This document shows positions 10,102-27,432 of a stretch of DNA of 64,000 bases, one piece after another. The stretch's first letter is position 1; each line of letters opens with the position of its first letter. Source of the stretch: Bacteroidota bacterium (lineage in GTDB: Bacteria; Bacteroidota; Bacteroidia; Bacteroidales; FEN-979); assembly GCA_037134895.1 (NCBI GenBank), contig JBAXLI010000015.1, forward strand, positions 2,875-66,874. The letters are read 5' to 3'. The notes under the pieces are model-generated. The model ran no database searches and was not told the DNA's origin. It saw only the letters and a list, made by a program, of their open reading frames with translations. The translations under genes and the position numbers were made by a program.

Positions 10102-10192
10102 GTGAATGTCGAATATCGAATAAAGAATAACGAATATTGAATGAAAATAATTCAATGTTCAATGTTCAATGTTCAAAATTTGATATTCAAAG
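10102..10192. repeat. Degenerate tandem heptanucleotide array (about 13 units, core TTCAATG x3 and NCGAATA x4)
   Basis: Parsed in one 7-nt phase: gtgaatg tcgaata tcgaata aagaata acgaata ttgaatg aaaataa ttcaatg ttcaatg ttcaatg ttcaaaa tttgata ttcaaag. Confidence 0.7.
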
Positions 10193-10404
10193 GCTTTCCT
10201 TTGTTCCTCTTCCAGGGGCTCGATCTTTTCGAAGTTTTTCCATTGGAAATTTACCCGACGGCCGTGTTCATCCCAGGAATAAACATTGTCGAACATCCGA
10301 CCGAACCTGAATTTTGTTGAATCGTAATACACTGCATGGGCAACCTGTTCGCCTGTGCTGATATCGTTACCGATGAATGCATATTTTACATGCAGAAGGA
10401 TTTT
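10159..10404 (-). other. In-frame continuation of the Kir-type channel cytoplasmic domain, downstream of the TGA at 10405-10407
   Basis: It reads in the same frame as ORF 10405..11127 (codon phase verified). The 81 codons are KILLHVKYAFIGNDISTGEQVAHAVYYDSTKFRFGRMFDNVYSWDEHGRRVNFQWKNFEKIEPLEEEQRKAFEYQILNIEH*. The segment has no ATG near its 5' end. Confidence 0.55.
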
Positions 10405-10998
10405 TCAGTCAAGTGAATCGACCAGGGCCTGCCTCAGCTTTAATGCCGCGGGCTCATCCAGGCAGATATCATAGTATAAAATGCTTTCCATATCAGCCAT
10501 CTCTTCATCGTACCTGAATATCCTGACCCTGGTGTTATCCTGAACGATCCATGCCTCGAATTTTCCTTTCATGTCGATGATAGCTCTGCCTTTGTTTCCG
10601 AGGCGGATTGAAAGAAACCATTTATCCTTCCGCAGACGAATATAAACATGATGGGTAGTAAAGATATCGTCTCTTCTGCGGATGACGAAGTACACAAGGA
10701 AGCCGGAGAAAATTGCCGTGAAGAACAGAGAAGTGAACGCTTCGGTCATAAGGATGAGCCTTCCCGAAGTGGTAAGCGGATATATGTCGCCGTAACCTAT
10801 GGTATGAAAAGAAACGATACTGAAATAAATGGCTTTTTCAAAATCGATGGGTTCGTACACCCTCTGTATTGGCCTGTAAAAACCTATGCTGTTGGTGTTG
10901 TAATACAGGATCGCAAACAGGAATATCAGGCATGTATAAATCACAATGGTTGAGACAAGGAACCAAAGGATCTCACGGGTTTTGGTTGTCAGTTGCAT
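10405..10998 (-). CDS. KirBac-type (inward-rectifier-like) 2-TM potassium channel, ending at an apparently premature TGA
   Basis: The selectivity filter is SFHTIGYGDIYP. It is flanked by M1 (ILWFLVSTIVIYTCLIFLFAILYY) and M2 (GRLILMTEAFTSLFFTAIFSGFLVYFVI), followed by a beta-rich cytoplasmic domain. The likely start is the ATG at 10996-10998 (MQLTTKTREI). The ORF-track N-terminal extension to 11127 overlaps the divergent promoter and repeat region. Confidence 0.75.
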   Translation of the reverse strand: MQLTTKTREILWFLVSTIVIYTCLIFLFAILYYNTNSIGFYRPIQRVYEPIDFEKAIYFSIVSFHTIGYGDIYPLTTSGRLILMTEAFTSLFFTAIFSGFLVYFVIRRRDDIFTTHHVYIRLRKDKWFLSIRLGNKGRAIIDMKGKFEAWIVQDNTRVRIFRYDEEMADMESILYYDICLDEPAALKLRQALVDSLD

Positions 10999-11110
10999 CT
11001 TGAAACTGCTTAGGTATTCCAAATATAAGAAAAAATCGTGAATCGGTTCCTGGTTCCTGGTGCTTGGATATTGGTAAGACTCACGGCCTCCAACATCTTC
11101 TTTTTCACAA

Positions 11111-11138
11111 CATTCGTCATTCGTCATTCGTCATTCGT
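11111..11138. repeat. Perfect tandem heptamer (CATTCGT)x4
   Basis: Read directly as cattcgt cattcgt cattcgt cattcgt. It lies 41-68 nt upstream of the EF-G start codon, in the divergent intergenic region. Confidence 0.95.
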
Positions 11139-11178
11139 AACTAAATTATTTGTACCTTTGCACCCCAATTTGAAAATC

Positions 11179-13245
11179 ATGGCTTTAAACAGAGTAAGAA
11201 ATATAGGGATTGCCGCTCACATCGACGCAGGCAAGACTACAGTAACAGAACGTATACTTTTTTTCACCGGCGAAACCCGTAAAATGGGAGAGGTGCATGA
11301 CGGTCAGGCAACCATGGACTTCATGAAGCAGGAACAGGAGAGAGGCATCACAATCGCATCTGCAGCTATTTCCTGCACATGGAATAATCATGCGATAAAC
11401 CTTATCGATACCCCGGGCCACGTGGATTTCACCATTGAAGTGGAGCGCTCGCTCCGCGTAATCGACGGTATGGTCGCCGTTTTCTGCGCCGTTGGAGGCG
11501 TTGAGCCCCAGAGTGAAACGGTATGGAACCAGGCCGACCGCTACCGGGTACCACGTATTGCTTTCATCAACAAGATGGATCGCGTTGGTGCCGACTTCCC
11601 TGCAGTCGTCGAACAGATGAACAAATACCTCGATGCCAATGCATTTCCTTTTCAGGTGCAGATGGGCGAAGAAGAACATTTCGACGGCATTATCGACGTG
11701 ATCGAGCGCAAGGCATACAGGTTCGAGGAAATGGAGAGGGTTGAGATCCCCATCCCCGAAGATTACAAAACAAAGGTTGAACAGGCCAGGGCAAAAGTTG
11801 TTGAAAAGGTGGCAGAATTCAACGAAGAGATCATGGAGATGTTCTTCGAAGAAAAGGACGTACCTTCAGACCTCCTGAAACGTGCTGCCCGCGAAGCTAC
11901 CCTGAAGCTGCTTATCACTCCCGTGTTCTGCGGTGCTGCATATAAAAACAAAGGCATTCAGCTTATCCTTGATGCCGTGACCGATTACCTTCCTTCCCCC
12001 ATCGACAAGGGAGCTGTCACCGGAACCGATCTTGATGATCCTGAAAAACTTCACACCTGCCATCCTTCACCCAAGGAATCTTTTTCGGCACTTGCGTTCA
12101 AACTCATCCATGACCCTTACGTCGGACAGCAGACCTTCACCCGGGTATTTTCAGGCACCCTGAGAAGCGGTATGCAGGTCTATAATTCCACCAAGAAAAA
12201 GCATGAGCGCATAGGCCGTATCATGAAGATCCATGCCAAAGAGAGGGAGGAAGTTGCCGAAGCCGGTCCGGGCGACATTGTAGCTCTTATCGGGCTCAAA
12301 CTCACTAAAACAGGGGATACCCTTTGTGCCGATGAACATCGGTTGCTGCTTGAGAACATCCATGTTCCGCCTTCAGTTATTGAATTGAAGATAACACCTG
12401 CTAAGCGTGGGGACCAGTCGAAACTCGGTGAAGCTCTTCATAAGCTGACTACCGAAGATCCTTCATTCAACGTTAGGTATGACGAGGAAACCGAAGAAAC
12501 CGTAATAGCCGGGATGGGCGAACTACACCTCGAAATAATCGTCGACCGGCTTAAACATGAATTTAAAGTCGATGCCATCGTTGGCGAGCCTTCTGTTGCA
12601 TTCCGCGAAACCATTACCATGGAAGTCGAATCCAACCACAGGCATGTAAAGCAGACCGGGGGCAAAGGTCAGTTCGCACATACCGTTATGCGCATAGAAC
12701 CGAATCCCGGCAAGGGCTTCGAATTTGTCGAACACATCAAAGGCGGTGCGATCCCTGCAGAATTTATCACTTCGGTAAGGAAAGGTCTCGAAAAGAGCCT
12801 TGAAAAAGGGATCATGGCTGGCTACCCGGTTGTAGACGTACGTGTAACCCTTCTCGACGGAAGTTTCCATGCAGTCGACTCATCCGATATGGCTTTCCAG
12901 ACCTGTGCAGCAGTAGGCTTCAAGCAGGGATTCATGAAAGCCAGTCCCATTCTTCTCGAGCCTATCATGAAGGTAGAAGTGAATACCCCCGACGAATACA
13001 TCGGCGATATCGTAGGCAACCTAAACCGCCGCCGCGGAAAGATCGAAGGCATGCGCCGCTACCGGAAAGGATCGCAGAAGATCAACGTATTTGTCCCGCT
13101 TATGGAAATGTTCGGTTATTCTAACCAGCTGCGCAATGTATCCTCGGGCCGGGCCAACTACGCTATGGAATTCTACCAGTATCAGCCGTTGCCGAAAGCA
13201 ACACAAGAGGAAATTCTGAAGAAGATTGCAGCGGAGAAGAAATAA
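11179..13245 (+). CDS. Elongation factor G family GTPase (paralog, not in an rpsL-rpsG-fusA context)
   Basis: The start is at ATG 11179 (MALNRVRNIGIAAHIDAGKTT). G motifs are AHIDAGKTT, DTPGHVDF and NKMDR. EF-G-type domains II-V continue through to ...GRANYAMEFYQYQPLP. The ORF-track extension 11038-11178 translates the heptamer repeat and is rejected. Confidence 0.9.
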   Translation: MALNRVRNIGIAAHIDAGKTTVTERILFFTGETRKMGEVHDGQATMDFMKQEQERGITIASAAISCTWNNHAINLIDTPGHVDFTIEVERSLRVIDGMVAVFCAVGGVEPQSETVWNQADRYRVPRIAFINKMDRVGADFPAVVEQMNKYLDANAFPFQVQMGEEEHFDGIIDVIERKAYRFEEMERVEIPIPEDYKTKVEQARAKVVEKVAEFNEEIMEMFFEEKDVPSDLLKRAAREATLKLLITPVFCGAAYKNKGIQLILDAVTDYLPSPIDKGAVTGTDLDDPEKLHTCHPSPKESFSALAFKLIHDPYVGQQTFTRVFSGTLRSGMQVYNSTKKKHERIGRIMKIHAKEREEVAEAGPGDIVALIGLKLTKTGDTLCADEHRLLLENIHVPPSVIELKITPAKRGDQSKLGEALHKLTTEDPSFNVRYDEETEETVIAGMGELHLEIIVDRLKHEFKVDAIVGEPSVAFRETITMEVESNHRHVKQTGGKGQFAHTVMRIEPNPGKGFEFVEHIKGGAIPAEFITSVRKGLEKSLEKGIMAGYPVVDVRVTLLDGSFHAVDSSDMAFQTCAAVGFKQGFMKASPILLEPIMKVEVNTPDEYIGDIVGNLNRRRGKIEGMRRYRKGSQKINVFVPLMEMFGYSNQLRNVSSGRANYAMEFYQYQPLPKATQEEILKKIAAEKK

Positions 13246-13284
13246 TAGTTATCCGGCATTCGTTTGGATAGAAACAAAAAACAT

Positions 13285-14307
13285 ATGCGTTACAATATAT
13301 TAGGAAACACAGGGGTCCTGGTATCAGAACTCTGTTTGGGAGCCATGACTTTTGGCGGAAGGGGTTTCTGGACCAATATCGGCAAACTTCCGCAGGAAGA
13401 AGTCACGAACCTCGTTAAGATCGCTGTTGAGAACGGCATCAATTTCATAGATACGGCGAACGTATATTCCGAAGGACTCTCAGAGATCATGCTGGGCCAG
13501 GCGCTGAAAGACCTTGGCATCAACCGACAGGATATCTTCATTGCCACCAAGGTAAGGGGACGGATGGGCGAAGGTGTAAACCAGGTAGGCTTGTCAAGGC
13601 TGCATATTCAGTACAGTGTGAATGACAGTCTGCAGAGGCTTGGCCTTGACCATATCGACCTGCTTTATATTCACGGCGTTGACCCTGCGACCTCTCTGGA
13701 AGACACCATGCGCGGACTCGAAGAGGTGGTTCAGTCGGGAAAGGTGCGTTACCTTGGCATCAGCAATCATCCTGCCTGGATGGTCGTAAAAGCCAATGCC
13801 ATCGCTTCCGCCATGGGATGGAATAAATTCGTCGCCCTTCAGAATTATTACAGTATCGCAGGCCGCGATATCGAACGGGAGATCGTTCCCATGGCTGTTT
13901 CAGAAAACCTGGGCATCATGCCATGGAGCCCACTCGCAGGAGGATTCCTTTCGGGCAAATTCACAAGGGAAACTCAAAAAGCCGGGAACAGCCGCAGGGA
14001 CGATTTCGATTTTCCGCCGGTAAATAAAGAAAAAGCCTACGATATCATTGAAGTGATGCAGGAGATTGCATCAGGGTACAATGTCAGCGTCGCAAGAATT
14101 GCTCTCGCCTGGATGCTCCGCAAGAAAGGAATTACCAGCATTATCATCGGCGCCAAAAATGAAAACCAGTTACGGGAAAACATTGCTTCAACAACATTAT
14201 CGCTGACTGCGGATGAGATGTCCCGTCTCGACGCTGTAAGTGAATTAAGCAAGGAATATCCCGGGTGGATGGTCGAACGCCAGGCGGACGGTCGCTTACC
14301 GAAGTAA
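13285..14307 (+). CDS. Aldo/keto reductase
   Basis: The start is MRYNILGNTGVLVSELCLGAMTFG, followed by GINFIDTANVYSEGLSE, the AKR active-site region ...IATKV... and LYIHGVD. The length of about 340 aa fits the family. The ORF-track TTG start at 13264 is less likely than the ATG at 13285. Confidence 0.9.
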   Translation: MRYNILGNTGVLVSELCLGAMTFGGRGFWTNIGKLPQEEVTNLVKIAVENGINFIDTANVYSEGLSEIMLGQALKDLGINRQDIFIATKVRGRMGEGVNQVGLSRLHIQYSVNDSLQRLGLDHIDLLYIHGVDPATSLEDTMRGLEEVVQSGKVRYLGISNHPAWMVVKANAIASAMGWNKFVALQNYYSIAGRDIEREIVPMAVSENLGIMPWSPLAGGFLSGKFTRETQKAGNSRRDDFDFPPVNKEKAYDIIEVMQEIASGYNVSVARIALAWMLRKKGITSIIIGAKNENQLRENIASTTLSLTADEMSRLDAVSELSKEYPGWMVERQADGRLPK

Positions 14308-14349
14308 CCGTGAGCCATGAGTCGTGAGCAGGATCACGAATCACGATTT
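14308..14349. repeat. Tandem heptamer array (CCGTGAG-like x3, then ACGAATC-like)
   Basis: ccgtgag ccatgag tcgtgag caggatc acgaatc acgattt. It starts immediately after the AKR stop codon. Confidence 0.7.
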
Positions 14350-14352
14350 TTT
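14322..14352 (+). terminator. Candidate intrinsic terminator of the aldo/keto reductase gene
   Basis: TCGTGA (14322-14327) can pair with TCACGA (14341-14346, or alternatively 14334-14339). A T6 run follows directly at 14347-14352. Confidence 0.45.
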
Positions 14353-14480
14353 CTTCGCAGCACCATTGCCATGACTGCTACGGTCTAAATGAGCTCACCA
14401 TTTGTTTTCCCTTAGTTTTAATTCAAATCTCTGTTCGCTCATGTAGCCCTGAGGCAGCCCTGGCAAGGTGCTGCGAATTA

Positions 14481-14508
14481 CTCACGGCTCACGGCTCACG
14501 ATTTACGC
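14481..14508. repeat. Tandem heptamer (CTCACGG)x2 plus CTCACGA plus TTTACGC, the inverted complement of the 14308 array
   Basis: ctcacgg ctcacgg ctcacga tttacgc. The reverse complement of CTCACGG is CCGTGAG. The array overlaps the stop codon (14496-14498) and last codons of the MFS gene. Confidence 0.85.
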
Positions 14509-15650
14509 AGGCTGTACAAACCAACTCCAAACAGATATACCATACACCCGATCAGGACATAGATGCCGGCGATCACAGAACTGACGTCGGTGACCCAGCC
14601 GATTAAGAGAGGGATTACAGCTCCGCCGCTGATGGCGCTCATCATGAGGCCTGAGATTTCGTTGGTACGGTCAGGGTATCTTTCAACAGCAATCGAGAAA
14701 ACAAGGGGCCAGATATTGGCTACGAACATCCCTACAAGAAAAACAAGAACCCAGGCTGCGGCAGCCGATGGAATTGCGATCATTGCCAGCAACGCAAGAA
14801 TTCCGAGAAAGGAAGTCCCCATCAGGAATTTCCTTGACGACATTTTTGTGAGCATGATAGCGCCTGCAAAAGTTCCAAGCATACGTCCGAAGAAATAAAC
14901 GCTTCGTCCCGATTCAGCTGCAGTCTGTTCGATACCGAAATGTTTGATCAGGATCTGTCCGGAGTTTGAATTGAAACCCACGTCAACCCCGACAACAACG
15001 AAGATCGCAAGAACCATAAGGAATATAAAACCATTGCCCAGCAGGCTGAATGCCGATCCGAAGGTTACATTGACAGATTCCAGCTTCCGCTCATCCACTT
15101 TGGTCATTCCCAGCCATACTGCAGTAAGTATGGAAACAATCCCGAAGACCAGGAACAGAAGCTTCCAATCGCCGAATTTCAGGGCGAAATAACCGGCAAG
15201 AGGAGCACCTATCATGGAGCCTATGGCCTTGATAAATTGTGAAAAACTCAGGAAACTCGAAGCCCGGTTTGAAGGCACCACATCCACGATCAGGGGATTT
15301 GCCGAGACCTGAACGATGGTGTTACCAATCCCAAGCAATGCAAACCCGAAGAGTACCATAGAGAACGAGTAGATGAAGAACGGGACCAGCAATCCGCAGG
15401 CAGTTACAAGAATACCGATGTTCAGCATATTGCGTTTACCTATCCTTGCCTGCATGATGCCAACCGGGACCGAGAGCAGCAGAAACCAGAGAAAGGCTGC
15501 TGAGGGGATCAATTGTCCGAGGGTGGCGCTCAGGCTCATGTCTTTGCTTACGCGGTCAACGCCAATTCCGACCAGGTCAACGAAACTCATGACGACAAAA
15601 GCCATCAGCACCGGCAGCAGTTTGGGGATATTCACTTTTTTTGTTTCCAT
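14496..15650 (-). CDS. MFS transporter (sugar / FucP-GluP-like)
   Basis: About 12 hydrophobic helices. The N-terminal region LPVLMAFVVMSFVDLVGIGVD...IPSAAFLWFLLLSVPVGIMQARIGKR resembles sugar MFS permeases. The likely start is the ATG at 15648-15650 (METKKVNIPK). Confidence 0.7.
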   Translation of the reverse strand: METKKVNIPKLLPVLMAFVVMSFVDLVGIGVDRVSKDMSLSATLGQLIPSAAFLWFLLLSVPVGIMQARIGKRNMLNIGILVTACGLLVPFFIYSFSMVLFGFALLGIGNTIVQVSANPLIVDVVPSNRASSFLSFSQFIKAIGSMIGAPLAGYFALKFGDWKLLFLVFGIVSILTAVWLGMTKVDERKLESVNVTFGSAFSLLGNGFIFLMVLAIFVVVGVDVGFNSNSGQILIKHFGIEQTAAESGRSVYFFGRMLGTFAGAIMLTKMSSRKFLMGTSFLGILALLAMIAIPSAAAAWVLVFLVGMFVANIWPLVFSIAVERYPDRTNEISGLMMSAISGGAVIPLLIGWVTDVSSVIAGIYVLIGCMVYLFGVGLYSLRKS

Positions 15651-15709
15651 GAAATTTTTGTTAGGGTGATCAATGAATGGCAAATATATAAAACTCCACC
15701 GACAGGAAT

Positions 15710-15741
15710 AAAAAAAAGCTGCCTCCCCAAAGGAAGGCAGC
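15710..15741 (-). terminator. Rho-independent terminator downstream of the 15784..16134 gene
   Basis: The minus-strand RNA reads GCUGCCUUCC-UUUG-GGGAGGCAGC followed by U8 (the plus strand has A8 at 15710-15717). It lies about 40 nt after the stop at 15784. Confidence 0.75.
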
Positions 15742-15783
15742 CATCAAGCAATCAAGTCAACTAATCAACGTATGACGTCTGAA

Positions 15784-16134
15784 CTAAATCAGGCGAAAAG
15801 ACAGTTTAATGCGGTAATACTGGTTCAGCGGGCTTTCAAGTTTGGTGAATTTGATCTGTGCAAGCTGATCCTTGATATAGTCCGAAAGCTCTTCGTTGCT
15901 GCTGATGATGCGCTTGACGAGCAATTTGCCTTCGGTAGTTACGGTGAACAATACATCTGCGCAGCAAAGATTATCCTGGACTTTAATATATCCCGGATGT
16001 TTTACCTGGTGCTGTATGGCTTCCCTGATTGTAGCTGCGGTATCTTTAATGGTTTTCCCGGCGAAGGACGAGCCTCCCAGGATCAGAAGGGTGGTCAGAA
16101 TGAGAATGAATTTTGAAAAGGTTTGCGGTTTCAT
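15784..16134 (-). CDS. Small secreted protein of unknown function
   Basis: 116-aa ORF with signal peptide MKPQTFSKFILILTTLLILGGSSFA. It is followed by its own terminator. The family was not recognised. Confidence 0.6.
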   Translation of the reverse strand: MKPQTFSKFILILTTLLILGGSSFAGKTIKDTAATIREAIQHQVKHPGYIKVQDNLCCADVLFTVTTEGKLLVKRIISSNEELSDYIKDQLAQIKFTKLESPLNQYYRIKLSFRLI

Positions 16135-16485
16135 GGTTGGTTCCTCCGATATATGTTGTGTGATATATGAGTCGTTTAATTTTTGGAAATGTTACAATGT
16201 TTTAAATATTTAACACATGTTTAACATTTCCTTAAGTATTGAAACAAAGATAATTCCATGCAAGTATCAGATCAAAAACCAATCGGTATTTTGATAGAAA
16301 GGAGTTGTAGGATTCAACTTATCGTCGCCCAAATCGTTAGGATGATATAATGGCAGGGGAAATCGTCGCCGAAATCGCTTTTTTAATGTGTGAAATTCAG
16401 CAGGCCTCAAAAGAAAGGCGATGGATATATAAAATGATTTTATTACTTTGTAGTCGGATTCTGAGCAATCATAAAATCAAACCAT

Positions 16486-18531: not shown

Positions 18532-19845
18532 TCACTTCAGCTTTACCGATCCTTCATACATTTGAAGTTTTACTGCAGACGCTGTATTCTCATCCCCTCC
18601 CTGGGTTACACCCAGGTATTCGAAGTCTTCGTCTTCCTTATGATATTTGATTTCCCTGAATGCCGACTTAGGATAATCGAAGCTGGTGTATTTCATTTCG
18701 GCATCAAGCTTGTAGGGGGTGCCGTATTCGAAGAGCAGCTCGAGTTCGGTATACTTGCTGTTAATACTGATCCCTGTGAATTTTTTGCCCACCTGCAGCA
18801 CGGTGATCTTGTCTTCGAAGCTGTTTAGGAAATTCAGGTTGCCGTCGAGCCGTGAAATCCTGTAGGTGCTGTAATTTGAACTGGCTTTGAGGTCCCCTGT
18901 TTGCTCACAATTGAATTTATTTTCAAAGGAAGATGTAAACACGATAGCTTTACAGGAAATGAATTCCACTGAACTGTATTTTGCCGCTATGGCGATGATG
19001 TTCCCGTTTCCGGCTTTTAACTTGCACTCAAACAGGTCAAAGGTTGACTTGTTGAAATCGGACAGGTTCAGGGTAGTGTATTTCGCCCTCACATTGAGAT
19101 CTCCATGACGTTTCACGGTGACCTTGTCTTCATAGGAATCAATATTCAGCGAACCGGCAGTACCGATTTCGTTTTCGGAATACTTTGAATCGAGCTTGAT
19201 ATTCCCTGCATGCCTCAGCGTGAGATTATTCTCGTAAAGCTTGAGGCTGATATCCTGAACAGAGTCTATTTCGGTTTTCCCGTATTTCGCGGTGATGTCC
19301 CCGCAGTTCGGAAGCTTTCCGGCTGAGAAGTCAGTCTCGTACAGGTCGAGGATGATCTTTCCGTCCAGGTCTGGCAAAGTCGCGTTTTCATAAGCCTGGG
19401 TAAGGTTCAGCGCATTGCTTTTCGGCATTGTAAGAACAAAGGAAAGATCGAGTTTAGCCAATTTTGCAGTGCTGCCGTCAAGAAAAGTGATCTTAAACTT
19501 TCCGGGGATCATCCCGTTCATCATGCTATAGAACCTGGTGTTGAATTTCACTTTGTCTCCATCCTGAACGAAGGCCATTTTTTTAATTTCCTCCAGGGCT
19601 TTCTGCACCTGTTCTTCGTCCCCGTCGACCGAGATTGAAACGTCAACTTTAACAGAGTTTTTCTCCCAGGTTTCCACCTTGAGAGCGCCGAACTTGTTCT
19701 CAAATATGATCTGTGTTTCTGGTTTGACAACCCTTTCGAAAGAATAGGTTTCTTTTCTTTCTTTTAATTCGCTGGCGGATGTCATTAAGGGGAATGCCAG
19801 GCAGCCCAGCATCAGCAGGCTATAGAATATGCTTTTCGTTTTCAT
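18532..19845 (-). CDS. Secreted beta-strand-repeat protein (DUF4097 / putative adhesin-like), third gene of the ECF sigma operon
   Basis: Signal peptide [26 protein letters not shown]. The body is long, repetitive and beta-rich. Its position after the sigma and membrane-protein genes matches the common sigma / anti-sigma / DUF4097 arrangement. Confidence 0.55.
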   Translation of the reverse strand: MKTKSIFYSLLMLGCLAFPLMTSASELKERKETYSFERVVKPETQIIFENKFGALKVETWEKNSVKVDVSISVDGDEEQVQKALEEIKKMAFVQDGDKVKFNTRFYSMMNGMIPGKFKITFLDGSTAKLAKLDLSFVLTMPKSNALNLTQAYENATLPDLDGKIILDLYETDFSAGKLPNCGDITAKYGKTEIDSVQDISLKLYENNLTLRHAGNIKLDSKYSENEIGTAGSLNIDSYEDKVTVKRHGDLNVRAKYTTLNLSDFNKSTFDLFECKLKAGNGNIIAIAAKYSSVEFISCKAIVFTSSFENKFNCEQTGDLKASSNYSTYRISRLDGNLNFLNSFEDKITVLQVGKKFTGISINSKYTELELLFEYGTPYKLDAEMKYTSFDYPKSAFREIKYHKEDEDFEYLGVTQGGDENTASAVKLQMYEGSVKLK

Positions 19846-20458
19846 ACTTTTTGTTCTTTTCGATTTCATTCAGTGTTTTTTCAATCACCCTGATCTTTAA
19901 TTCATAGCAGCGGATAATGCCTTTTAATATTTTCGGCTGGCTGCCGAGTTCATGAAGGTCGCTCATGTAAGTCTGGTACTGCTTGTCTATCTGCTCCAGT
20001 TGCTGCATCATTTCATAATAGTTGTCGCGACTGGCCCCTGATTTTTTCACCTCCTCCATTTTCTGCAATACTGTAAGCCTGAAAAAATTCTCCTCTTCTC
20101 CCAGTTGCTTCGATACATTTTGAAGTGAAAAACTGAGTTCTGAAGTCTGCCTGTGTTTTATTACCAATGTAGCGGCTACGCCGGATGATATCAGCAGAAG
20201 AATCACGGCTGCGGCGCTGAGCAAGCGGATCCTCAGCCTCCGGCTTTTATTAAGCTCTGCTGAAATCCCTTTCCAGATCTTCTCATCATCAGGAACCTCC
20301 ACATCCTGCATCCCGCATCCCGCATCCTGCATCTTGCATCCTGCATCCTGCATCCCGCATCCCGCATCCTGCATCCCGAATCCCGCATCCTGCATCTTGT
20401 ATCTTGCATCTTGTATCTTGTATCTTGCATCCAACATCTCTTCAAACTTACTTTTCAT
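19820..20458 (-). CDS. Single-pass membrane protein (putative anti-sigma factor) with a heptamer-repeat-encoded N-terminal tract
   Basis: The start overlaps the sigma gene's stop region by 11 nt. The TM segment is [22 protein letters not shown], followed by a coiled-coil-like C-terminus. Residues about 7-53 are the periodic tract ...[33 protein letters not shown], encoded by the 7-bp array. Confidence 0.6.
20301..20440. repeat. 20-unit tandem heptanucleotide array (plus strand GCATCCY/GCATCTT/GTATCTT; coding strand RGGATGC)
   Basis: Parsed unit by unit from 20301 to 20440 in a single 7-nt phase. Every unit carries ATG or ATA on the coding (minus) strand. Two ORF-track entries (19820..20458 and 20233..20445) read through it in different frames. 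Confidence 0.95.
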
Positions 20459-21005
20459 ACACCTTTTTCATTAGCGATTCCTGAAGCAGGCTTACAGCCC
20501 TCCGGTATTGAGATTTCGACGTCGACTCCGAAATCCCCAACATCCCTGCGACATCCGAATGCCTGTATCCTTCGAGAAGGTGAAGTACGCATACCACTCT
20601 TGCACCTTCGGGAAGACGCAGGATAGCCTGGTGGATCTCATCCGCCGTGATATCATCAAAAGAAAACTCCGGATCCGCAGCATCCGCCATATCCTTATCC
20701 TTATCCTCAAACTCAACGAATACCGGTTTTTGTTTTCGTATATGGTTCAGGCATTGGTTGACAACAATCCTTCTCAGCCATGCACCCAGGGTACTCTGGA
20801 AGCGAAACGAGGGAAGTTCCCTGAACATCTTCACAAAAGCCTCCTGCAGAAGGTCTTCAGCTTCGGATTTGTTCGAAACCATTCGCAAACATAGGTTGTA
20901 CATGGTACGGGAATATTGCTTGTACAAACGATACTGGGCCACACGGTCGCCCCGGATACACGATCGTATAAGTTCCTGGTTGATATCCGGGATGTTTGAC
21001 TCCAA
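20448..21005 (-). CDS. ECF-type RNA polymerase sigma-70 family factor
   Basis: 185 aa. Region 2 is [41 protein letters not shown]. Region 4 is [40 protein letters not shown]. Confidence 0.9.
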
Positions 21006-21171: not shown

Positions 21172-22374
21172 ATGAGAAAATTCACAGTTTCGTTTGCCAT
21201 GACTGGCTTGTTAATCCTGATGATGTTGACAGTTAAAAGCTTTGCTCAGTATACAACAATCGAGGGCGCAAAGGATTATATCAATGACAGACTTTCGCAC
21301 TCTATAATCCAGAAGGTTGATTCTGCCGGAACCGTGACTATCAGTGCCCCTGGTGAAAAAATTAAATTCAGATTACAGGATGTCTCCTTTAATTATAATG
21401 GTGGAAATAATGATGACCGTGTGAGGGTTTATTGTGATAATTGCATAGAGCATTATGAGCACAAAGAGCTCTCTGAAAAAACCAGCCGGCAGTCATTCCT
21501 GTGTGAATCAGAGAAAGAGGCTTATGAAGTGATCAATGCTTTCAGATATCTGAAAAAAATGACTGCCTCGAACAAAAAGGGTGTAATGACCTATGGAAAA
21601 AAATTGAAAGTTATCGATACAACATTCGGTACAAAAAGCATAGGAGAAGCCATTGATTTCATCAACGACAATCTGTCATTTTCGATGGTTATGGGCATAA
21701 ATGATGAGGGCCTTATGACAATCAATGCTCCTGATGAAGTATTCGAAATTGATTTGAGAGAAGCTGAATTCGGATATAATGATCTCGAGGATGCCTCGAA
21801 AGTGAGGATTTACGGAAATTTCTGCATTGATGTCAAGAACAATCACGGGAAGAAAGAATACCTTTCACGTAAATCATTTCAAACGCCGGGCAGGGTGAAA
21901 GCGTTTAAAGTTATAACAATTTTATACTACCTTAAATGCACTTATAACAATACGGATCCTTCGACTCTGTCCATATTAAAAAATCTTGGTAAAACCAGGA
22001 CCGAAGCTTACAAGAATACTACGGAAGCCATTGATTTTATCAATAGCCGTCTTTCTTATTCAATTATTATGGGGATCGATAACAGCGGGAATCTATCGAT
22101 TAACTCCCCCGATAATATATACGCATTTAACATTCATGATGTGAAGATGTCTAAAACAGATCACAGTAATCTGAGTACCGAATGGTTCAGCATACCGTAC
22201 AAACTTGAATATACACCTGGAGTTTTAATGGAATGCCAGGATTGTATTAAACAGTATGATGCACCAGGGACATTTCATACAATGCGTGAACAGGTATTTC
22301 AGTGTGGGAGCATGACAGAAGTGAAGGATGTGCTCAAAGCGTTTGCATATATTCAGGCCCTGGTAAAAAAGTGA
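21172..22374 (+). CDS. Secreted protein built from three copies of an unrecognised ~125-aa module
   Basis: Signal peptide ...LTVKSFAQ. The three modules start AKDYINDRLSHSIIQKVDSAGTVTISAPGE, IGEAIDFINDNLSFSMVMGINDEGLMTINAPDE and TTEAIDFINSRLSYSIIMGIDNSGNLSINSPDN. Each ends in a Cys-containing segment and an AF(R/A)Y(L/I) helix. Confidence 0.6.
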   Translation: MRKFTVSFAMTGLLILMMLTVKSFAQYTTIEGAKDYINDRLSHSIIQKVDSAGTVTISAPGEKIKFRLQDVSFNYNGGNNDDRVRVYCDNCIEHYEHKELSEKTSRQSFLCESEKEAYEVINAFRYLKKMTASNKKGVMTYGKKLKVIDTTFGTKSIGEAIDFINDNLSFSMVMGINDEGLMTINAPDEVFEIDLREAEFGYNDLEDASKVRIYGNFCIDVKNNHGKKEYLSRKSFQTPGRVKAFKVITILYYLKCTYNNTDPSTLSILKNLGKTRTEAYKNTTEAIDFINSRLSYSIIMGIDNSGNLSINSPDNIYAFNIHDVKMSKTDHSNLSTEWFSIPYKLEYTPGVLMECQDCIKQYDAPGTFHTMREQVFQCGSMTEVKDVLKAFAYIQALVKK

Positions 22375-22382
22375 GGGATCTC

Positions 22383-23732
22383 TTACAGTGTAATAATAAA
22401 GCTTGTGCTTTCGGCGGATGACTCAAGGTGTATATATCCGTGGTGCAGCCTGAGGATCTGGCGTGAAAGGCTCAAACCAATGCCCGAACCATTGTCTTTC
22501 GTGGTAAAGAAGGGGATGAAAATCTTTTCCTGCACATCTTCAGGGATAAAAGGTCCGTTATTGCTGATCCTGATCACCGGACGGTTCTGACGGGAGAGGT
22601 CAACCCATACTTTGATCTTCCTGTTTTCAGATATGTCTTCCAGGGCCTCCATTGCATTGTTCAGTATATTAATGACAACCTGGGTGAGGAGTTTTTTGTC
22701 ACCGGGAATATTCGTGATCCTCGATTCAATTTTCAATTCATGCTGAATATTCAGTTTTTCCATCCTTTCCTTTGAAAGCAGCCAGATCTGGTCAAGCCAT
22801 TCTTTCACCGGGAAGGGGGCAAACTCAGGCTTCGGGATCCTCGTAAGTTTGCGGTAACTGTCGACGAAATTGACCAGCCCTTTGCCCCGTTCTTCAATGG
22901 TATCAAGGCCCTGGATTACGTTCTCGATGGTTTCTTCATCGACTGTTGAGGGATTGACAGGGTTTCCTTCCTCGAGAAAAAATCTTCTGAGAGTCCCGGT
23001 AAGCGAAACTATAGGCGCTATGCTGTTCATGATTTCATGGGTAAGCACTCTGATCAGTTTCTGCCAGGAATCGAGCTCTTTCTCATCCAGCTCATGCCTT
23101 ATGTCCTGCAGGGATATGAGTTTAGACACTTTCCCGCCGTAATGAATCTCCTTTGAACGGATTAGCAGGTTGATCTGGGAATCCTTGCTGAACTGCTTGA
23201 ACGAAGAGGCCTCACCGGGTTTGATTGCTGCAAGCAAGGTGAAAAGTTCCGGATTTCTCATTGGGATCAGGTGAAGCGGAGTGAAAGAAGGGATACCGGC
23301 ATAATCAAAAGCCTTGTCATTCATGATCTCCACTTCATTATCCTGGTTGATGGCCATCAACCCGGTTGCTGCATGCTGGATAAACGTCCTGAAATATTTC
23401 TCAAGGTATTCATTCTGCAGCTTGATCTGGTTGATCTGTTCGTTCAGCTCGGTAAGGCTTTTATAGAGATGACGCAGGGATTTCTGGCGGATCTGGGTGG
23501 GAAATTTCAGGGATGAATCTTCGTTGCGTATCGCTTCGAAAAAGAAGGCGATCTGACGGTTCGACTGGTTGAAAGTGTAAATTATGGAATAGGCTGACAC
23601 AGGCACAGGAAGCAAAAACATCAGGTACCAGGAATCCATATGATAAGCTGTTAAAAATCCTGCCAGGAATACTGCAATCAATATGACTGCAATATGTATC
23701 ATTGCCCTTAGGGTGACATGTTTATAGCCCAT
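22383..23732 (-). CDS. Sensor histidine kinase with two adjacent TM helices and no periplasmic domain (NtrB/AtoS-like cytoplasmic part)
   Basis: TM1 is AMIHIAVILIAVFLAGFLTAY, the loop is HMDSW and TM2 is YLMFLLPVPVSAYSIIYTF. A PAS-like region follows. The H-box is LIRVLTHEIMNSIAPI, and the HATPase boxes are NILNNAMEAL, NNGPFI and GSGIGLSLSRQI. It overlaps the regulator gene by 11 nt. Confidence 0.85.
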   Translation of the reverse strand: MGYKHVTLRAMIHIAVILIAVFLAGFLTAYHMDSWYLMFLLPVPVSAYSIIYTFNQSNRQIAFFFEAIRNEDSSLKFPTQIRQKSLRHLYKSLTELNEQINQIKLQNEYLEKYFRTFIQHAATGLMAINQDNEVEIMNDKAFDYAGIPSFTPLHLIPMRNPELFTLLAAIKPGEASSFKQFSKDSQINLLIRSKEIHYGGKVSKLISLQDIRHELDEKELDSWQKLIRVLTHEIMNSIAPIVSLTGTLRRFFLEEGNPVNPSTVDEETIENVIQGLDTIEERGKGLVNFVDSYRKLTRIPKPEFAPFPVKEWLDQIWLLSKERMEKLNIQHELKIESRITNIPGDKKLLTQVVINILNNAMEALEDISENRKIKVWVDLSRQNRPVIRISNNGPFIPEDVQEKIFIPFFTTKDNGSGIGLSLSRQILRLHHGYIHLESSAESTSFIITL

Positions 23733-25095
23733 ATTTTTTCATTTTTTTGTACAGGGTGGTACGTGAAATGCCCAGGTTTTTAGCAGCAATACTTAAACTC
23801 TGGCTGTTGTTTTTTAGTTCATTTTCAACCATGCGTTTTTCCATTTCTTCAAGGGTGAGGTTTTCTCTGCTCACCGATTGAGATGACTGGAATAGGTTCA
23901 GGTCTTGTGGGGAAATTTCCCTGCCTTCGCAGAGGATCACCGCTTTTTCCATGGTATGCTGCAGCTCCCTCACATTCCCCGGCCATTCATATTTCCTTAG
24001 CCGGTCTAAGGCTTTTTGTTGCAACCTTACGCAGGTCTTTTTGTATTTCAGAGCATATTTGCTGATGAAAAAATTGGCCAGGATCTCAATATCCTCAGGA
24101 CGTTTGCGTAATGGAGGAAGTTCGATCTGAATGGTATTTATCCTGTAAAGCAGATCCTGCCTGAACTGCTTGTCCTGCACCATCTGCAAGAGGTTTTTAT
24201 TTGTAGTACATATCAGCCTGATATTTACCGGCAGTTCCTTGTTTGAACCGACAGGGATTACCACCCTGTTCTGAAGCATATTCAGCAGTTTCGACTGGAG
24301 ATGGAGAGGCAGGTTGCTGATCTCATCAAGAAGCAATGTCCCTTTATCGGCAAGAGCGATTTTCCCGGTACGTTCTTCATATGCGTTGGTGAATGAACCT
24401 TTGGCGTGCCCAAACATCTCGCTTTCAAACAGGCTTTCGGCTACCGATCCCAGGTCAATGGCAACCAGGAGTTCATTATACCGTTCCGACTGCCGGTGGA
24501 TCTCTTTGGCAATAAGTTCTTTTCCTGTGCCGTTCTCACCCGTGATCAGGATGTTGGCATCGGTGCGGGCAACTTTTTTCACAAGGTCAAGGATCTGTTG
24601 CATGGCCGGAGAAACACCGATGATCATCCGCTCATCCCGGTTCATCTCGGTTTTGAGATCCTGTTCTCGTTTTATCAGGTTCCCCACAGCCTGGTTCGAT
24701 CTGCGCAGTTTTAAGGCAGCTTTAAGAGTGGCCAGGAGTTTTTCATTTTCCCAGGGTTTCAGAACAAAATCTGCAGCGCCTTCATGGGTGGCTTTGACTG
24801 CAGTTTCTATGTCGCCGTATGCTGTAAACATCACAACCTCAACATCAGGTTTTCTTTGTTTGATTTCCCTGAGCCAGTACATCCCTTCATTCCCCGAACT
24901 TTCGCCTGCCTTGAAGTTCATATCGAGCAATACTACGTCGATTTCCCTGCCCTCTATCTCATGAGGCAGGGTATTGGGGTTTGAGAGTGTGATCACCTCA
25001 AGGAAATCGAACTTCAGGAATAAGCGCAGGGCATTAAGCACGCTTTTATTATCATCCACAATCAGTAAGCGGCCTTCTTTAATTCTTTCATCCAT
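23722..25095 (-). CDS. Sigma54-dependent response regulator (NtrC family enhancer-binding protein)
   Basis: The REC domain is LLIVDDNKSVL...VVLLDMNF...KPW. The AAA+ domain has Walker A (ITGENGTGKE), an ESEMFGHAKGSFTNA loop (a GAFTGA-motif variant) and LLLDEI. The C-terminal Fis-type HTH is AAKNLGISRTTLYKKMKKYGL. Confidence 0.9.
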   Translation of the reverse strand: MDERIKEGRLLIVDDNKSVLNALRLFLKFDFLEVITLSNPNTLPHEIEGREIDVVLLDMNFKAGESSGNEGMYWLREIKQRKPDVEVVMFTAYGDIETAVKATHEGAADFVLKPWENEKLLATLKAALKLRRSNQAVGNLIKREQDLKTEMNRDERMIIGVSPAMQQILDLVKKVARTDANILITGENGTGKELIAKEIHRQSERYNELLVAIDLGSVAESLFESEMFGHAKGSFTNAYEERTGKIALADKGTLLLDEISNLPLHLQSKLLNMLQNRVVIPVGSNKELPVNIRLICTTNKNLLQMVQDKQFRQDLLYRINTIQIELPPLRKRPEDIEILANFFISKYALKYKKTCVRLQQKALDRLRKYEWPGNVRELQHTMEKAVILCEGREISPQDLNLFQSSQSVSRENLTLEEMEKRMVENELKNNSQSLSIAAKNLGISRTTLYKKMKKYGL

Positions 25096-25298
25096 AATCT
25101 GAAAAGTTTATACCCCCAGGCGGCATTCTCCTCCAACTGAACTAAGTACGATGGAAGGTTTTGGCGCAAAGAGAGTGTAATATATCTCGTAAAAAGTTTT
25201 TAAATGTACAGAAAATTAACACCAAACTGTTCAGTATGTTTACAAAAAATCACATGAAACATATTATAAATAGTTATAAATCAATCATATAAAATTTT

Positions 25299-25314
25299 TG
25301 GCATAAATTTTGCA
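25299..25314 (+). promoter_or_regulatory. Sigma54 (-24/-12) promoter: TGGCAT-AAATT-TTGCA
   Basis: The sequence tTGGCATaaattTTGCAa matches the TGGCAC-N5-TTGCW consensus with exact GG/GC spacing. It lies 32 nt upstream of the ABC ATPase ATG (25346), next to a divergent sigma54 activator gene. Confidence 0.65.
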
Positions 25315-25345
25315 ATAGTATGTATCAAAATTAAACAATATACCA

Positions 25346-26038
25346 ATGATAAAAACAGTAAATCTAACCAAACGGTTTATCACCGACGAGATCGAAACCA
25401 CTGCACTCAACAATGTGAGCATGGAGGTTAAAAAAGGCGAATTCATTGCCATTATGGGTCCTTCGGGTTGCGGCAAATCAACTTTGCTTAACATCCTTGG
25501 AATGCTTGATAATCCAAGTGACGGCAATTACATCTTCAACGATGTTGATGTTTCAAAATACAAGGAAGGGAAGCGAACCCAATACCGCAAGGGAAACATT
25601 CAATTCGTGTTTCAGAGCTTTAATCTCATCGACGAACTGAACGTTTATGAAAACGTCGAGCTTCCCCTGCTGTATCTGAAGAAAACAACAGCCGAGCGCA
25701 AACAGATGGTAACCGATATCCTTGACCGGATGAAAATCGGTCATCGCAAAAAGCATTTTCCGCAGCAACTGTCGGGTGGACAGCAGCAGCGTGTTGCAAT
25801 TGCCCGTGCAGTGGTACCTGGCCCTCAGTTGATCCTTGCCGATGAACCAACCGGTAATCTCGACTCGAAAAACGGTATAGAGGTAATGAATCTCTTATCT
25901 GAACTGAATAAGCAGGGAACCACCATTGTGATGGTGACCCATTCGCAAAGGGATGCAGCATTTGCTCACAGAATTGTCAATTTGTTTGACGGACAGATCG
26001 TAAGTGAGGAAGTCGCCCATAGCCAGCAAGCCGTATAA
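25346..26038 (+). CDS. ABC transporter ATP-binding protein (MacB/LolD-type NBD)
   Basis: Walker A is GPSGCGKST, the signature is LSGGQQQRVAIARA, Walker B is LILADEPTGNLD and the H-loop is VTHS. 230 aa. Confidence 0.95.
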   Translation: MIKTVNLTKRFITDEIETTALNNVSMEVKKGEFIAIMGPSGCGKSTLLNILGMLDNPSDGNYIFNDVDVSKYKEGKRTQYRKGNIQFVFQSFNLIDELNVYENVELPLLYLKKTTAERKQMVTDILDRMKIGHRKKHFPQQLSGGQQQRVAIARAVVPGPQLILADEPTGNLDSKNGIEVMNLLSELNKQGTTIVMVTHSQRDAAFAHRIVNLFDGQIVSEEVAHSQQAV

Positions 26039-26039
26039 A

Positions 26040-27389
26040 ATGAAATGCCAAACGAACATACTGCTCCTGTTTTTGCTTGCATTCTCCTGCCAGGGAATTT
26101 TATTTGCCCAGAAGTCCTGGAACCTCGATCAATGCATAAACTATGCCTGGGAAAACAATTTCTCTGTTCACAACCAGGAGCTGGGTGTTAAAATCAAGAA
26201 GACCGATTACAGGCAGGCCAGGAATGATTTATTGCCCGACCTCGGTTTTTCAACTTCATACACCCAGAACTATGGACGCAGTATCGATCCGACTACAAAT
26301 TCATACATCGATGTACAGTTCTTTAACAATGGTTATGGGCTGGCGGCTTCAGTTGACCTCTTCAACGGGTTTATGAAGGTCAATACGATCAATATGCAGC
26401 GCTTGAATTATGAAGCGGAGAAGAACAGGCTTCAGCAAGTCAGGAACGAGGTTGCATTTACAGTGATTAACAGTTATTTCAACGTTTTGCTTCAGCAGGG
26501 GCTTTCGTCAATTGCAATGGAGAATTTCAAACTCTCACGCACCCAATTGGATTTTACTACTGAATACGTCAGGCTTGGTCGTAAACCGGGTACCGATTTG
26601 CTCGAAACAGAAGCCAACCTGGCCTCCGACAGTTTCCTGCTGGTTCAGTCTTATAACCTGCTTGAACAGGCAAGCCTGGGGCTGAAATACCAGATGAATT
26701 TTCCGGTTGCCGACAGCCTTGTCATTGATACTGTTGTGATGTCAATCTTCGCAGGTTCAATCGATACGCTTTCGATGGACGAGTTATACAGGGTTGCAGC
26801 TGTTGCACTGCCTGATATAGTATATGCAAAGAATAACATGCTGGCTGCAAAAAAAGCGGTACAGGTAAGCCAGGGCTCATTTTCACCCAGGCTTGGATTT
26901 TATGCCGGATGGAATTCGCAGTATATGCAAACAAGCCGAGACTCCCTGAACAGGATCATTCCTTATGGCGACCAGATGAAAAACAACTCAAGCGAATACC
27001 TGAGTCTTGATCTCCAGATACCATTGTTTTCGAGATTTTCTAAATACACTTCCCTGAGTAAATCCAAACTGAGATACCAGCAAGCCAGGATACAGTATGA
27101 TGACATCTCATATAAACTCATGATGGGCGTCGAAAAATCGCTTACCGAATGGAGAGCTTCAAGGGCGGAATATGAATCTTCACTCAGCCAGCTTGCAAAG
27201 AACCTTAAAGCATATCAGGCTGCTGAAAAGAAACTGGATAAAGGCCTGATCAATATCATAGAATTCGATATCCAGAAAAATAAATGGATCAGGGCAAAAG
27301 CCGAAGTTTTAAGAACCGGCTTGCAGGTATTGTTAAAGGAACGATATATCAGGTTCCTGATGACCGGATCACTGTTATCGGGGAAATAA
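26040..27389 (+). CDS. TolC-family outer-membrane efflux protein
   Basis: The start is at ATG 26040 (MKCQTNILLLFLLAFSCQGILFAQ), 1 nt after the ATPase stop. It has a two-fold repeated coiled-coil/beta architecture with typical OEP motifs (LDQCINYAWENNFSV, ARNDLLPDL, LDKGLINIIEF). Confidence 0.85.
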   Translation: MKCQTNILLLFLLAFSCQGILFAQKSWNLDQCINYAWENNFSVHNQELGVKIKKTDYRQARNDLLPDLGFSTSYTQNYGRSIDPTTNSYIDVQFFNNGYGLAASVDLFNGFMKVNTINMQRLNYEAEKNRLQQVRNEVAFTVINSYFNVLLQQGLSSIAMENFKLSRTQLDFTTEYVRLGRKPGTDLLETEANLASDSFLLVQSYNLLEQASLGLKYQMNFPVADSLVIDTVVMSIFAGSIDTLSMDELYRVAAVALPDIVYAKNNMLAAKKAVQVSQGSFSPRLGFYAGWNSQYMQTSRDSLNRIIPYGDQMKNNSSEYLSLDLQIPLFSRFSKYTSLSKSKLRYQQARIQYDDISYKLMMGVEKSLTEWRASRAEYESSLSQLAKNLKAYQAAEKKLDKGLINIIEFDIQKNKWIRAKAEVLRTGLQVLLKERYIRFLMTGSLLSGK

Positions 27390-27390
27390 A

Positions 27391-27432
27391 CGTAAATCGG
27401 GCTTCGTAAATCGTGAATCGTAAATCGTAAAT
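27391..27432. repeat. Tandem heptamer array (CGTAAAT/CGTGAAT, 6 units) inside the operon spacer
   Basis: cgtaaat cgggctt cgtaaat cgtgaat cgtaaat cgtaaat. It fills most of the 51-nt gap between the TolC-like and HlyD-like genes. Confidence 0.8.

Follow-up and report, generated by a model that had tools for sequence, protein, structure and literature searches.

Tandem heptanucleotide arrays at gene ends of a Bacteroidales genome and their shared repeat units with the arms of PF05635 gene cassettes

Here we describe the tandem heptanucleotide arrays in a 64,000-nt stretch of DNA from a Bacteroidota bacterium (Bacteroidales; FEN-979; GenBank assembly GCA_037134895.1, contig JBAXLI010000015.1, positions 2,875 to 66,874 of the forward strand), hereafter the window, in which an earlier note made from the sequence had pointed out six loci with 7-nt units at gene boundaries (loci 1 to 6, Table 1). 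These arrays are genuine and represent a known repeat class at very high density, and their units recur elsewhere in the same genome as inverted arms around genes of the PF05635 family (23S rRNA intervening sequence (IVS) or S23p proteins, Avd-like four-helix bundles). By a modest balance of probability, we suggest that the arrays of the window are gene-less relatives of the arms of such PF05635 cassettes and that slippage has resized them and selection at gene ends has filtered them. Reports of tandem heptamers go back to 1990 for cyanobacteria and to 2007 for many bacteria, and to our knowledge neither an origin nor a function has been assigned to them. The proteins of 23S rRNA intervening sequences have been on record since 1993, and we know of no function assigned to these either. 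The genome containing the window (G000; 4.72 Mb, 191 contigs, 45.6% G+C) and its relatives (other genomes compared are labelled G001 and so on, and contigs of G000 by C-numbers) tie the arrays to the 23S-IVS proteins through common units and through the agreement between arms and dispersed arrays within a species. The shared arm units make the origin of the arrays testable, and both parts exist in Xanthomonas campestris (XCC0516) and Nostoc (alr0549).

When perfect arrays of at least three copies were counted across G000, periods 5 and 6 gave five arrays each, period 7 gave 460, period 8 gave 95, and periods 9-11 gave none. A scan tolerating unit changes yielded 614 self-similarity blocks at lag 7, 134 at lag 8, one at lag 6 and none at lag 9. 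Arrays of period 7 outnumber those of period 6 about 90-fold and those of period 8 about fivefold, which is the excess that the earlier note had expected from a genome-wide count. Its description of a periodicity of exactly 7 needs correction, since the period is 7 or 8 and the octamer arrays belong to the same family. Many octamer units can be read as a heptamer with one base added, especially in inverted neighbours, and adjacent 7/8 pairs are often one insertion apart. The restriction to periods 7 and 8 was the same in 13 other genomes of the order. In total, G000 contains about 850 arrays (844 in the unit comparison), of which 682 are of period 7, and those found by Tandem Repeats Finder (TRF) with a score of at least 40 together occupy 48.5 kb (1.03% of the genome). 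This count is a lower bound because 92 of the 382 contig ends lie within arrays. In practical terms, the arrays break short-read assemblies in this manner, shift start and stop calls, and add repeat peptides to proteins. Copy numbers fall off smoothly to a maximum of 33, and the arrays are clumped along the genome: their counts per 20 kb have a variance-to-mean ratio of 3.3, and 48 of the 158 bins are empty. Most array flanks are unique. We considered a conserved MITE, a miniature transposable element with inverted repeats, as the carrier of the arrays and rejected it, as the flanks are unique except for a family of a 125-nt palindrome with about 25 copies.

The repertoire of units is narrow. 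The 682 period-7 arrays use 54 consensus units among about 1,170 possible classes, and 50 of these units, accounting for 655 arrays, are joined in one single-substitution network, so that the description of the units as different but related holds genome-wide. Units containing GGG make up 161 of the 682 arrays, and their copy numbers peak broadly at 5-7; the four-unit peak that a G-quadruplex rule calls for was not found, and this rule was discarded.

G000 carries seven PF05635 genes, none of them on the contig of the window, which holds gene-less arrays only. Six of the seven lie between inverted 7/8-nt arrays, each with its own unit (TAGGCAC, GTAACARA, AGGGGTT, CGTAAAT, GCGAAATA and GAATATC). 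Arrays on both sides were found at 5.2% of 697 small genes, and the chance of finding them at six of seven PF05635 genes is P ~1e-7. The cassettes have a regular layout: an upstream arm with n copies of a unit U ends 12-100 nt before the start codon, the open reading frame (ORF) follows, and a downstream arm with m copies of the reverse complement of U begins flush with the stop codon. The upstream arm has G>=C in 19 of 19 cases. When the dispersed arrays were compared with the arms, 317 of the 844 arrays of G000 were at most one substitution away from one of the six arm units. Two of the window loci share sequence with individual cassettes: a 19-nt stretch of locus 1, gaatgtcgaatatcgaata, is identical to an arm of the PF05635 cassette at C28:802-847, and the CGTAAAT unit of locus 6 is the arm unit of the cassette at C12:70503-71010. 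The earlier note had stated that no annotated feature explains the arrays. This has to be qualified, as PF05635 cassettes outside the window use the same units as arms.

The association extends beyond G000. Of 48 further PF05635 genes sampled in relatives, about 30 (~60%) have both arms, and one PF05635 gene in an Anaerolineae metagenome-assembled genome (MAG) is embedded in arrays. Six homologues that are 59-74% identical to the protein encoded on C37 occur in other taxa at six different loci, namely between kinase and regulator in two different operons, CheR and CheB, sigma and anti-sigma, RlmL and a major facilitator superfamily (MFS) gene, and carB and purF; each of the six is bracketed by TAGGCAN arms that are flush with the upstream stop. 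Within the C37-type protein clade, this arm unit is retained at seven different loci. We also examined whether the protein clade sets the choice between period 7 and period 8, and this was rejected because cognate cassettes switch between 7 and 8 from species to species, as in GAATATC/GAATAATC and AAAAGCG/GCGAAATA.

Detailed comparison between species revealed that arm unit and dispersed unit agree within a species. One orthologous cassette has CGTAAAT arms in G000, CGTACAT arms in G003 and GGTACAT arms in G010. The words (CGTAAAT)x3, (CGTACAT)x3 and (KGTACAT)x3 gave 14, 0 and 0 dispersed matches, respectively, in G000, 8, 552 and 0 in G003, and 0, 0 and 93 in G010. Likewise, the AAAAGCG arms of a cassette in G002 match a dispersed TTTCGCTx25 array, and the TGAAATGG arms of a cassette in G003 match a dispersed GAAATGGTx17.5 array. 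In three cassette lineages, the arm unit of a species is thus also dispersed in that species. The 552 matches of (CGTACAT)x3 in G003 compare with 0-10 in ten congeners and resemble a recent burst of one unit variant. The largest class of G000, AGGATGC (about 170 arrays, including locus 5), is similarly concentrated: (AGGATGC)x3 was absent from all of the 300 other genomes examined in the order (148 families) and present in 14 of 61 genomes within the family including G000, which has 130 matches, followed by G003 with 38. Based on these observations, the earlier suggestion of a possibly actively spreading repeat system fits the species-specific bursts of AGGATGC and CGTACAT. Finally, one site occurs in gene-filled and gene-less forms: the gap between two flanking genes, A and B, is occupied by the gene with its arms in G000 and also in G011, a genome from another genus, by a gene-less TAGGCAA hairpin in G006 and G004, and by nothing in G007 and G008.

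The AGGATGC unit is also patchy on a wider scale. Among the matches listed, (AGGATGC)x4 arrays were found in MAGs of more than ten phyla, often many per genome, including Chloroflexota, Acidobacteriota, Gemmatimonadota, Planctomycetota, Verrucomicrobiota and several Proteobacteria, with Desulfobacterota, Actinomycetes, Armatimonadota and Bacteroidota as further groups, and the loci of the other phyla in these matches show only lags 7 and 8.

We then compared the orthologous gaps of the window. The nearest named relatives are Bacteroidota/Bacteroidales MAGs with 74-82% nucleotide identity, and ten congeners, whose EF-G is 93-95% identical, are syntenic across 9-29 kb of the window. Their orthologous gaps contain different units, different copy numbers or no array. 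The gap between the aldo/keto reductase and MFS genes is 194 nt here and ranges from 14 to 283 nt in the congeners with other units or none, and the EF-G-reductase gap, which is 21 nt here, is 193 nt in G003 and consists entirely of (GAAATGGT)x17.5 plus (AAATCGT)x5. In the EF-G gap, the promoter-proximal 30 nt are kept in the congeners and the array is missing or different (CTTTTCG-type units in G002). The gap between the OEP and HlyD genes of the efflux operon is 56-60 nt in G007, G008 and G002 and still has period 7, with units CCGTGAA or TTGTACA; in G007 and G008 the OEP stop lies within the array. Where an array is translated, a frame rule was observed. Locus 5 lies within an anti-sigma-like ORF (19820-20458) that overlaps the extracytoplasmic function (ECF) sigma gene (20448-21005) by 11 nt, and its unit variants are arranged in blocks along the array. 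In all orthologues a conserved MKSKFEE precedes the array and a conserved 13-residue stretch follows it in one frame. Eight orthologous sequences (seven distinct) are all in frame, with lengths of 177, 184, 184, 191, 191, 191, 198 and 212 aa, that is, in steps of 7 aa (21 nt, three units).

Placement relative to genes was analyzed with a gene set that is a crude ORF-based proxy, and on this basis 78% of the arrays are wholly or mostly intergenic compared with 9% under random placement. Among 476 gene 3' ends adjoining arrays, 35% have the array at -10 to +6 nt from the stop, and 167 arrays are flush with a stop codon while 101+-7.5 are expected when arrays are placed randomly within the same gaps. 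Divergent gaps contain 61 arrays instead of about 120 expected by gap length, a twofold depletion, and convergent gaps contain 1.4 times the expected number (chi-square ~43 for the gap-type distribution). The preference for gene boundaries noticed in the window is thus a property of the genome. Relative to transcription, none of the 13 commoner units exceeds a strand bias of 2:1, and the small class AACCCCC stands at 8:0. Four further ideas on the arrays were tried and rejected. Arrays do not appear to creep into gene ends by supplying stops, as units containing a stop are not enriched in flush arrays (37% vs 30%, P=0.12). (AGGATGC)n does not appear to act upstream of genes as a frame-proof array of Shine-Dalgarno sequence plus ATG, as the antisense orientation is commoner at 5' ends. 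Structure-free spacers were dismissed because the arrays are slightly more structured than their shuffles (-3.8 vs -2.6 kcal/mol per 42 nt), and intrinsic terminators because the 24 terminator-like sites compare with 19.3+-5.1 in shuffles and do not fall on the arrays. The arrays are DNA-level elements, neither RNA genes nor strand-specific signals.

Many arrays come as inverted pairs. We found 48 neighbouring array pairs that are mutually inverted and form near-perfect predicted hairpins of -42 to -57 kcal/mol, several of them with a zero-length loop at GAT|ATC. Separately, we observed inverted AGGATGC-type arrays that meet without a spacer at GAT|ATC at C17:62654-62729, C27:35055-35110 and C143:1210-1260, forming perfect palindromes of 50-75 nt. 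Perfect palindromes of this kind are usually unstable in bacteria.

Taking the arrays as gene-less relatives of cassette arms, the window would contain both whole hairpins minus the gene (locus 1 and loci 3 plus 4) and single arms (loci 2, 5 and 6). Arrays may be seeded from, or kept uniform with, a cassette of the same unit class and later resized locally, with the copy number presumably altered by unit-wise slippage. They would persist where they are harmless, namely after stops, in operon spacers and less often in promoter gaps, and within genes only at a total length that keeps the frame, i.e. in 21-nt steps. Both the direction of the relationship and the way in which the arrays spread are inferred here. 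By analogy with the 23S intervening sequences, the hairpins may also be processed by RNase III. A wider proposal is possible but tentative: the PF05635 proteins could be unit-specific trans-acting partners of the 7/8-nt arrays, each paralogue lying between arrays of its own unit, recognising this unit and seeding or homogenising gene-less arrays of it across the genome. Such a two-part system, without transposase or reverse transcriptase, would have left as its traces the cyanobacterial (short tandemly repeated repetitive (STRR) and GGGGAYT), Xanthomonas (GGGAATC), Bacteroidota, Chloroflexota and other heptanucleotide repeats together with the S23p-bearing 23S IVS.

Here, we need to consider several observations that weigh against this interpretation. 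First, an unarmed PF05635 subfamily exists (C4:57442-57756 with L151, L152, L153 and L165), which never has arms and is 87-99% identical across the genus at a conserved locus; orthologous copies of the armed paralogues are only 62-76% identical. Second, the number of PF05635 genes correlates weakly with array density (Spearman 0.55, P=0.05, n=13), and G023 has 10 PF05635 genes and no array in 100 kb, so that a simple dose relation was rejected; on the supporting side, the two genomes without PF05635 have no arrays in 74 and 100 kb. Third, the AGGATGC class, the largest of all, has no cassette in this assembly, and at the AGGATGC loci of other phyla a PF05635 gene was present at one of 107 among the matches listed and was not adjacent. 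The missing cassette could be an assembly loss, because cassettes are often at contig ends. Fourth, we saw no recent movement: paralogous cassettes are less than 60% identical, and similar cassettes within the family are at orthologous loci. Fifth, we found no enzyme, and neither a target-site duplication nor defined ends of an element emerged from a comparison with congeners too diverged for base-exact empty sites and from arrays with variable ends. In addition, most array flanks are unique, the agreement between arms and dispersed arrays could stem from genome-wide conversion without a role of the cassette, and the placement at gene ends rests on the ORF-based proxy mentioned above.

The arrays might instead be plain long microsatellites of local origin that grow and shrink by polymerase slippage, the preference for 7-8 nt being a property of the replisome as proposed by Mrazek, and the PF05635 genes would then land or survive in pre-existing hairpins with no role in the origin or spread of the arrays. 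Slippage and the polymerase-footprint idea are published, and the smooth decay of copy numbers, the blocks of unit variants inside arrays, the rapid turnover at orthologous gaps, the mostly unique flanks, the AGGATGC class without a cassette and the failure to find a mobility enzyme are all consistent with it. However, a local origin fails to account for the use of only 54 out of about 1,170 possible unit classes by 682 arrays, and for the hundreds of loci in one species that carry a unit variant rare in its congeners. It also leaves unexplained that this variant is the arm unit of the species' own cassette in three lineages and that one protein clade has TAGGCAN arms at seven loci. Local slippage alone accounts for the resizing of arrays, not for the narrow unit repertoire or the species-specific agreement with the arms. 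We regard the microsatellite explanation as rather unlikely for these reasons.

It is less likely still that the arrays are mainly selected cis-elements at gene ends, in which hairpin pairs serve as RNase III sites, stabilisers or terminators and single arrays serve as spacers or protein-binding platforms that tune the neighbouring genes. The enrichment flush with stops, the depletion in divergent gaps and the 48 inverted pairs with their predicted stems are in line with such a role. In four species the OEP-HlyD gap has retained both its length and a 7-nt periodicity despite the change of unit, a cassette's two arms switch unit jointly, RNase III cleaves the heptamer-bearing stem in the Coxiella IVS, and the Xanthomonas repeats are transcribed. 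On the contrary, arrays are gained and lost between congeners beside conserved genes, and the strand bias relative to transcription is weak. Terminator-like sites are not commoner than in shuffles and do not coincide with arrays, the arrays are not less structured than their own shuffles, and GGG-containing units show no preference for four units. Finally, contingency loci, in which 7-nt slips would switch genes on and off, for example turning off the anti-sigma-like gene and releasing its ECF sigma, would suit a unit length that is no multiple of 3, an array located 18 nt inside an ORF with a coupled sigma gene and the wide copy-number differences between species, but they are very improbable given that the orthologues of locus 5 differ only in 21-nt steps and that most arrays are intergenic and beside housekeeping genes.

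Based on these comparisons, the reading as gene-less relatives of cassette arms is the one that we retain, and we compared the arrays with known repeat systems. The heptanucleotide long simple sequence repeats (SSRs) of Mrazek, Guo and Shah (2007), as summarised in PMC4679880 and PMC4692102, are tandem 7-nt units that form the dominant long SSR class, occur sporadically across phyla and are non-coding unless the frame is kept. G000 shows an excess of 7-nt units over other unit lengths, arrays that are mostly non-coding, close to the upstream ORF end and rare between divergent ORFs, and variation between close relatives. It differs from that class in its strict period of 7 or 8, in its density of about 850 arrays in 1% of the genome, in its set of about 54 related heptamer units, and in the match of these units to PF05635 cassette arms. 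The GGGAATC repeats of Xanthomonas and the GGGGA(C/T)T repeats of Nostoc PCC 7120 described by Rehm et al. (2015) are ~90% intergenic, follow shortly after the upstream ORF, seldom occur between divergent ORFs, include many convergent inverted pairs and vary between close species (PMC4692102). The arrays of G000 resemble them in placement, inverted pairs and species variation, and the Nostoc unit GGGGATT itself occurs at 21 loci in G000, whereas the units of G000 are mostly not G-rich, have no four-unit peak and include octamers. Rehm named no gene family, although the tables of that study place a GGGAATC array over the start of XCC0516, 6 nt from bccP, with the same arrangement for XAC0531, and a 129-nt GGGGATT array 55 nt upstream of alr0549 and 1 nt downstream of alr0548 (PMC4692102). 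XCC0516 of Xanthomonas campestris is a PF05635 protein and the closest solved structure (PDB 2GSC, E=6e-29), and Nostoc alr0549 is annotated as a four-helix-bundle protein. Among the publications that we searched, none links genome-wide heptamer arrays to the PF05635 family.

The earlier note had called the arrays STRR-like. The repeats STRR1-3 of heterocystous cyanobacteria (Calothrix PCC 7601; cited in PMC4692102) are dispersed tandem heptamers as here, and their units and host differ. No locus of G000 has at least three copies of STRR1 (CCCCAGT), STRR2 (TTGGTCA) or STRR3 (CAACAGT), and the host belongs to the Bacteroidales, so that the likeness stands as an analogy only and not as membership. 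The TAACTGA repeats of Beggiatoaceae, Cyanobacteria and some Bacteroidetes, which lie just upstream of start codons in one orientation (PMC4679880), are also intergenic heptamer arrays with a patchy distribution across phyla; neither TAACTGA nor GGGAATC is among the array units of this genome. On the side of the gene, the cassettes can be compared with the 23S IVS. In Coxiella burnetii, the IVS in helix 45 has strain-variable tandem heptamers in the stem around an S23p ORF, and RNase III cuts this stem; the ORF-bearing 23S IVS of Coxiella and Leptospira have been proposed to be selfish or formerly mobile (PMC4990558). The cassettes of G000 likewise place a PF05635 ORF in the loop of a long stem with tandem heptamers, but they lie between protein genes and not in rRNA, their arms are long arrays, and hundreds of dispersed gene-less arrays accompany them.

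Gene-bearing and gene-less forms that share their ends, lineage-specific bursts, and derivative ends that match a master are also known from insertion sequence (IS)/MITE and RAYT/REP-REPIN systems. Unlike these, the cassettes contain no transposase or nuclease, show no target duplication and end in tandem arrays of variable length. A link to RAYT/Y1 was rejected, since the single Y1_Tnp gene (C2:111891-112235) has unique flanks with no arrays or cores nearby. The accessory protein bAvd of diversity-generating retroelements (DGRs), a pentameric nucleic-acid binder (PF05635/PF22296; PMC10053308), belongs to the same protein family. A search for RVT_1 gave no match in G000 or G003, and DGR-like copying by a reverse transcriptase was rejected on this ground; in contrast to a DGR, template and variable repeats are also lacking. 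Two further observations concern the armed genes. The armed PF05635 genes L181-L190 are embedded in operons in the same orientation, flanked by genes that form functional pairs (sensor kinase|response regulator, CheR|CheB, ECF sigma|anti-sigma, carB|purF). Many homologues of the armed four-helix-bundle protein are known only on contigs of 500-2500 nt, as is expected if assemblies break in both arms.

Returning to the window, TRF and direct reading of the sequence located all six loci of the earlier note where it had placed them (Table 1), and no 7/8-nt array was found in 27500-64000. The neighbouring genes that it had named agree with the Pfam matches (ion channel, EF-G, aldo/keto reductase, MFS_1, ECF sigma, and OEP plus HlyD of the efflux system) and with the tRNA-Val at 9983-10058. 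A search against Rfam matched the tRNA only, and no 16S gene was found in the assembly.

Table 1. Period-7 arrays of the window and associated features, with the extent reported by TRF.
Feature	Positions	Strand	Units	TRF extent	Context
Locus 1, gene-less inverted array pair	10102-10192	none			Between tRNA-Val and 3' end of K+ channel C-terminal ORF
Locus 1, left arm	10104-10142		(CGAATAT/GAATATC)x5.6	10104-10142	
Locus 1, right arm	10151-10176		(TTCAATG)x3.7	10151-10176	Degenerate units to 10192
Short array	11045-11061		(GGTTCCT)x2.4		Same K+ channel/EF-G gap as locus 2
Locus 2	11111-11138		(CATTCGT)x4, = (ACGAATG)x4 on other strand	11111-11138	Divergent K+ channel/EF-G gap
Locus 3	14308-14349		(CCGTGAG)x3, then ACGAATC-type units	14308-14329	Left arm of ~200-nt palindromic composite
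Imperfect palindrome, 125-131 nt	14350-14480				Between loci 3 and 4; dispersed family, ~25 copies
Locus 4	14481-14508		(CTCACGG)x3	14481-14500	Right arm; inverted relative to 14308-14328
Locus 5	20301-20440	minus	(GCAGGAT/GCGGGAT/GCAAGAT) x ~19	20302-20432 (18.7 copies; largest of the window)	Translated as MQDAGCG-type heptads
Locus 6	27391-27432		(CGTAAAT/CGTGAAT)x6	27391-27432	Fills OEP-HlyD spacer (51-54 nt) of efflux operon

The structural examination of the loci changed the description of three of them. Locus 1 had been listed as one repeat tract and is instead an inverted pair; the region 10095-10200 plus flanks folds, as predicted, into one long hairpin of -43 kcal/mol. Loci 3 and 4 had been listed separately, and both arrays are present, but they are inverted arms around the dispersed palindrome. 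This palindrome family has a 17-member flank cluster and about 30 BLAST matches, forms a predicted hairpin of -50.3 kcal/mol, has no Rfam family match, and in most copies carries 7/8-mer arrays on one flank.

The statement that arrays abut or even supply gene ends was confirmed in the sequence throughout. The CCGTGAG array begins directly after the stop of the aldo/keto-reductase gene (TAA, 14305-14307), and unit three of the CTCACGG array contains the MFS stop (TCA on the plus strand, 14496-14498). The CGTAAAT array is preceded at a distance of 1 nt by the OEP stop (27387-27389), and 8 nt separate its end from the HlyD ATG at 27441. The K+ channel C-terminal ORF (10159-10332, minus strand) has its final ~9 codons and its TGA stop (10159-10161) inside the TTCAATG array, and its last 9 residues have no counterpart in relatives.

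Two minor observations were made on the genes around loci 1 and 2. The K+ channel gene has an in-frame TGA at 10405-10407 (minus strand), where relatives have a glycine codon, and the same frame runs on for 81 codons that are conserved in relatives; this TGA reflects a nonsense mutation, the splitting of the gene or a wrong base in the MAG. Upstream of EF-G, a Bacteroidota-type -7 box, TAccTTTG, at 11153-11160 is kept together with the next 20 nt in all congeners. Locus 2 lies just upstream of this box, the sequence further upstream, arrays included, differs among the congeners, and the start codon of EF-G is most likely the ATG at 11179.

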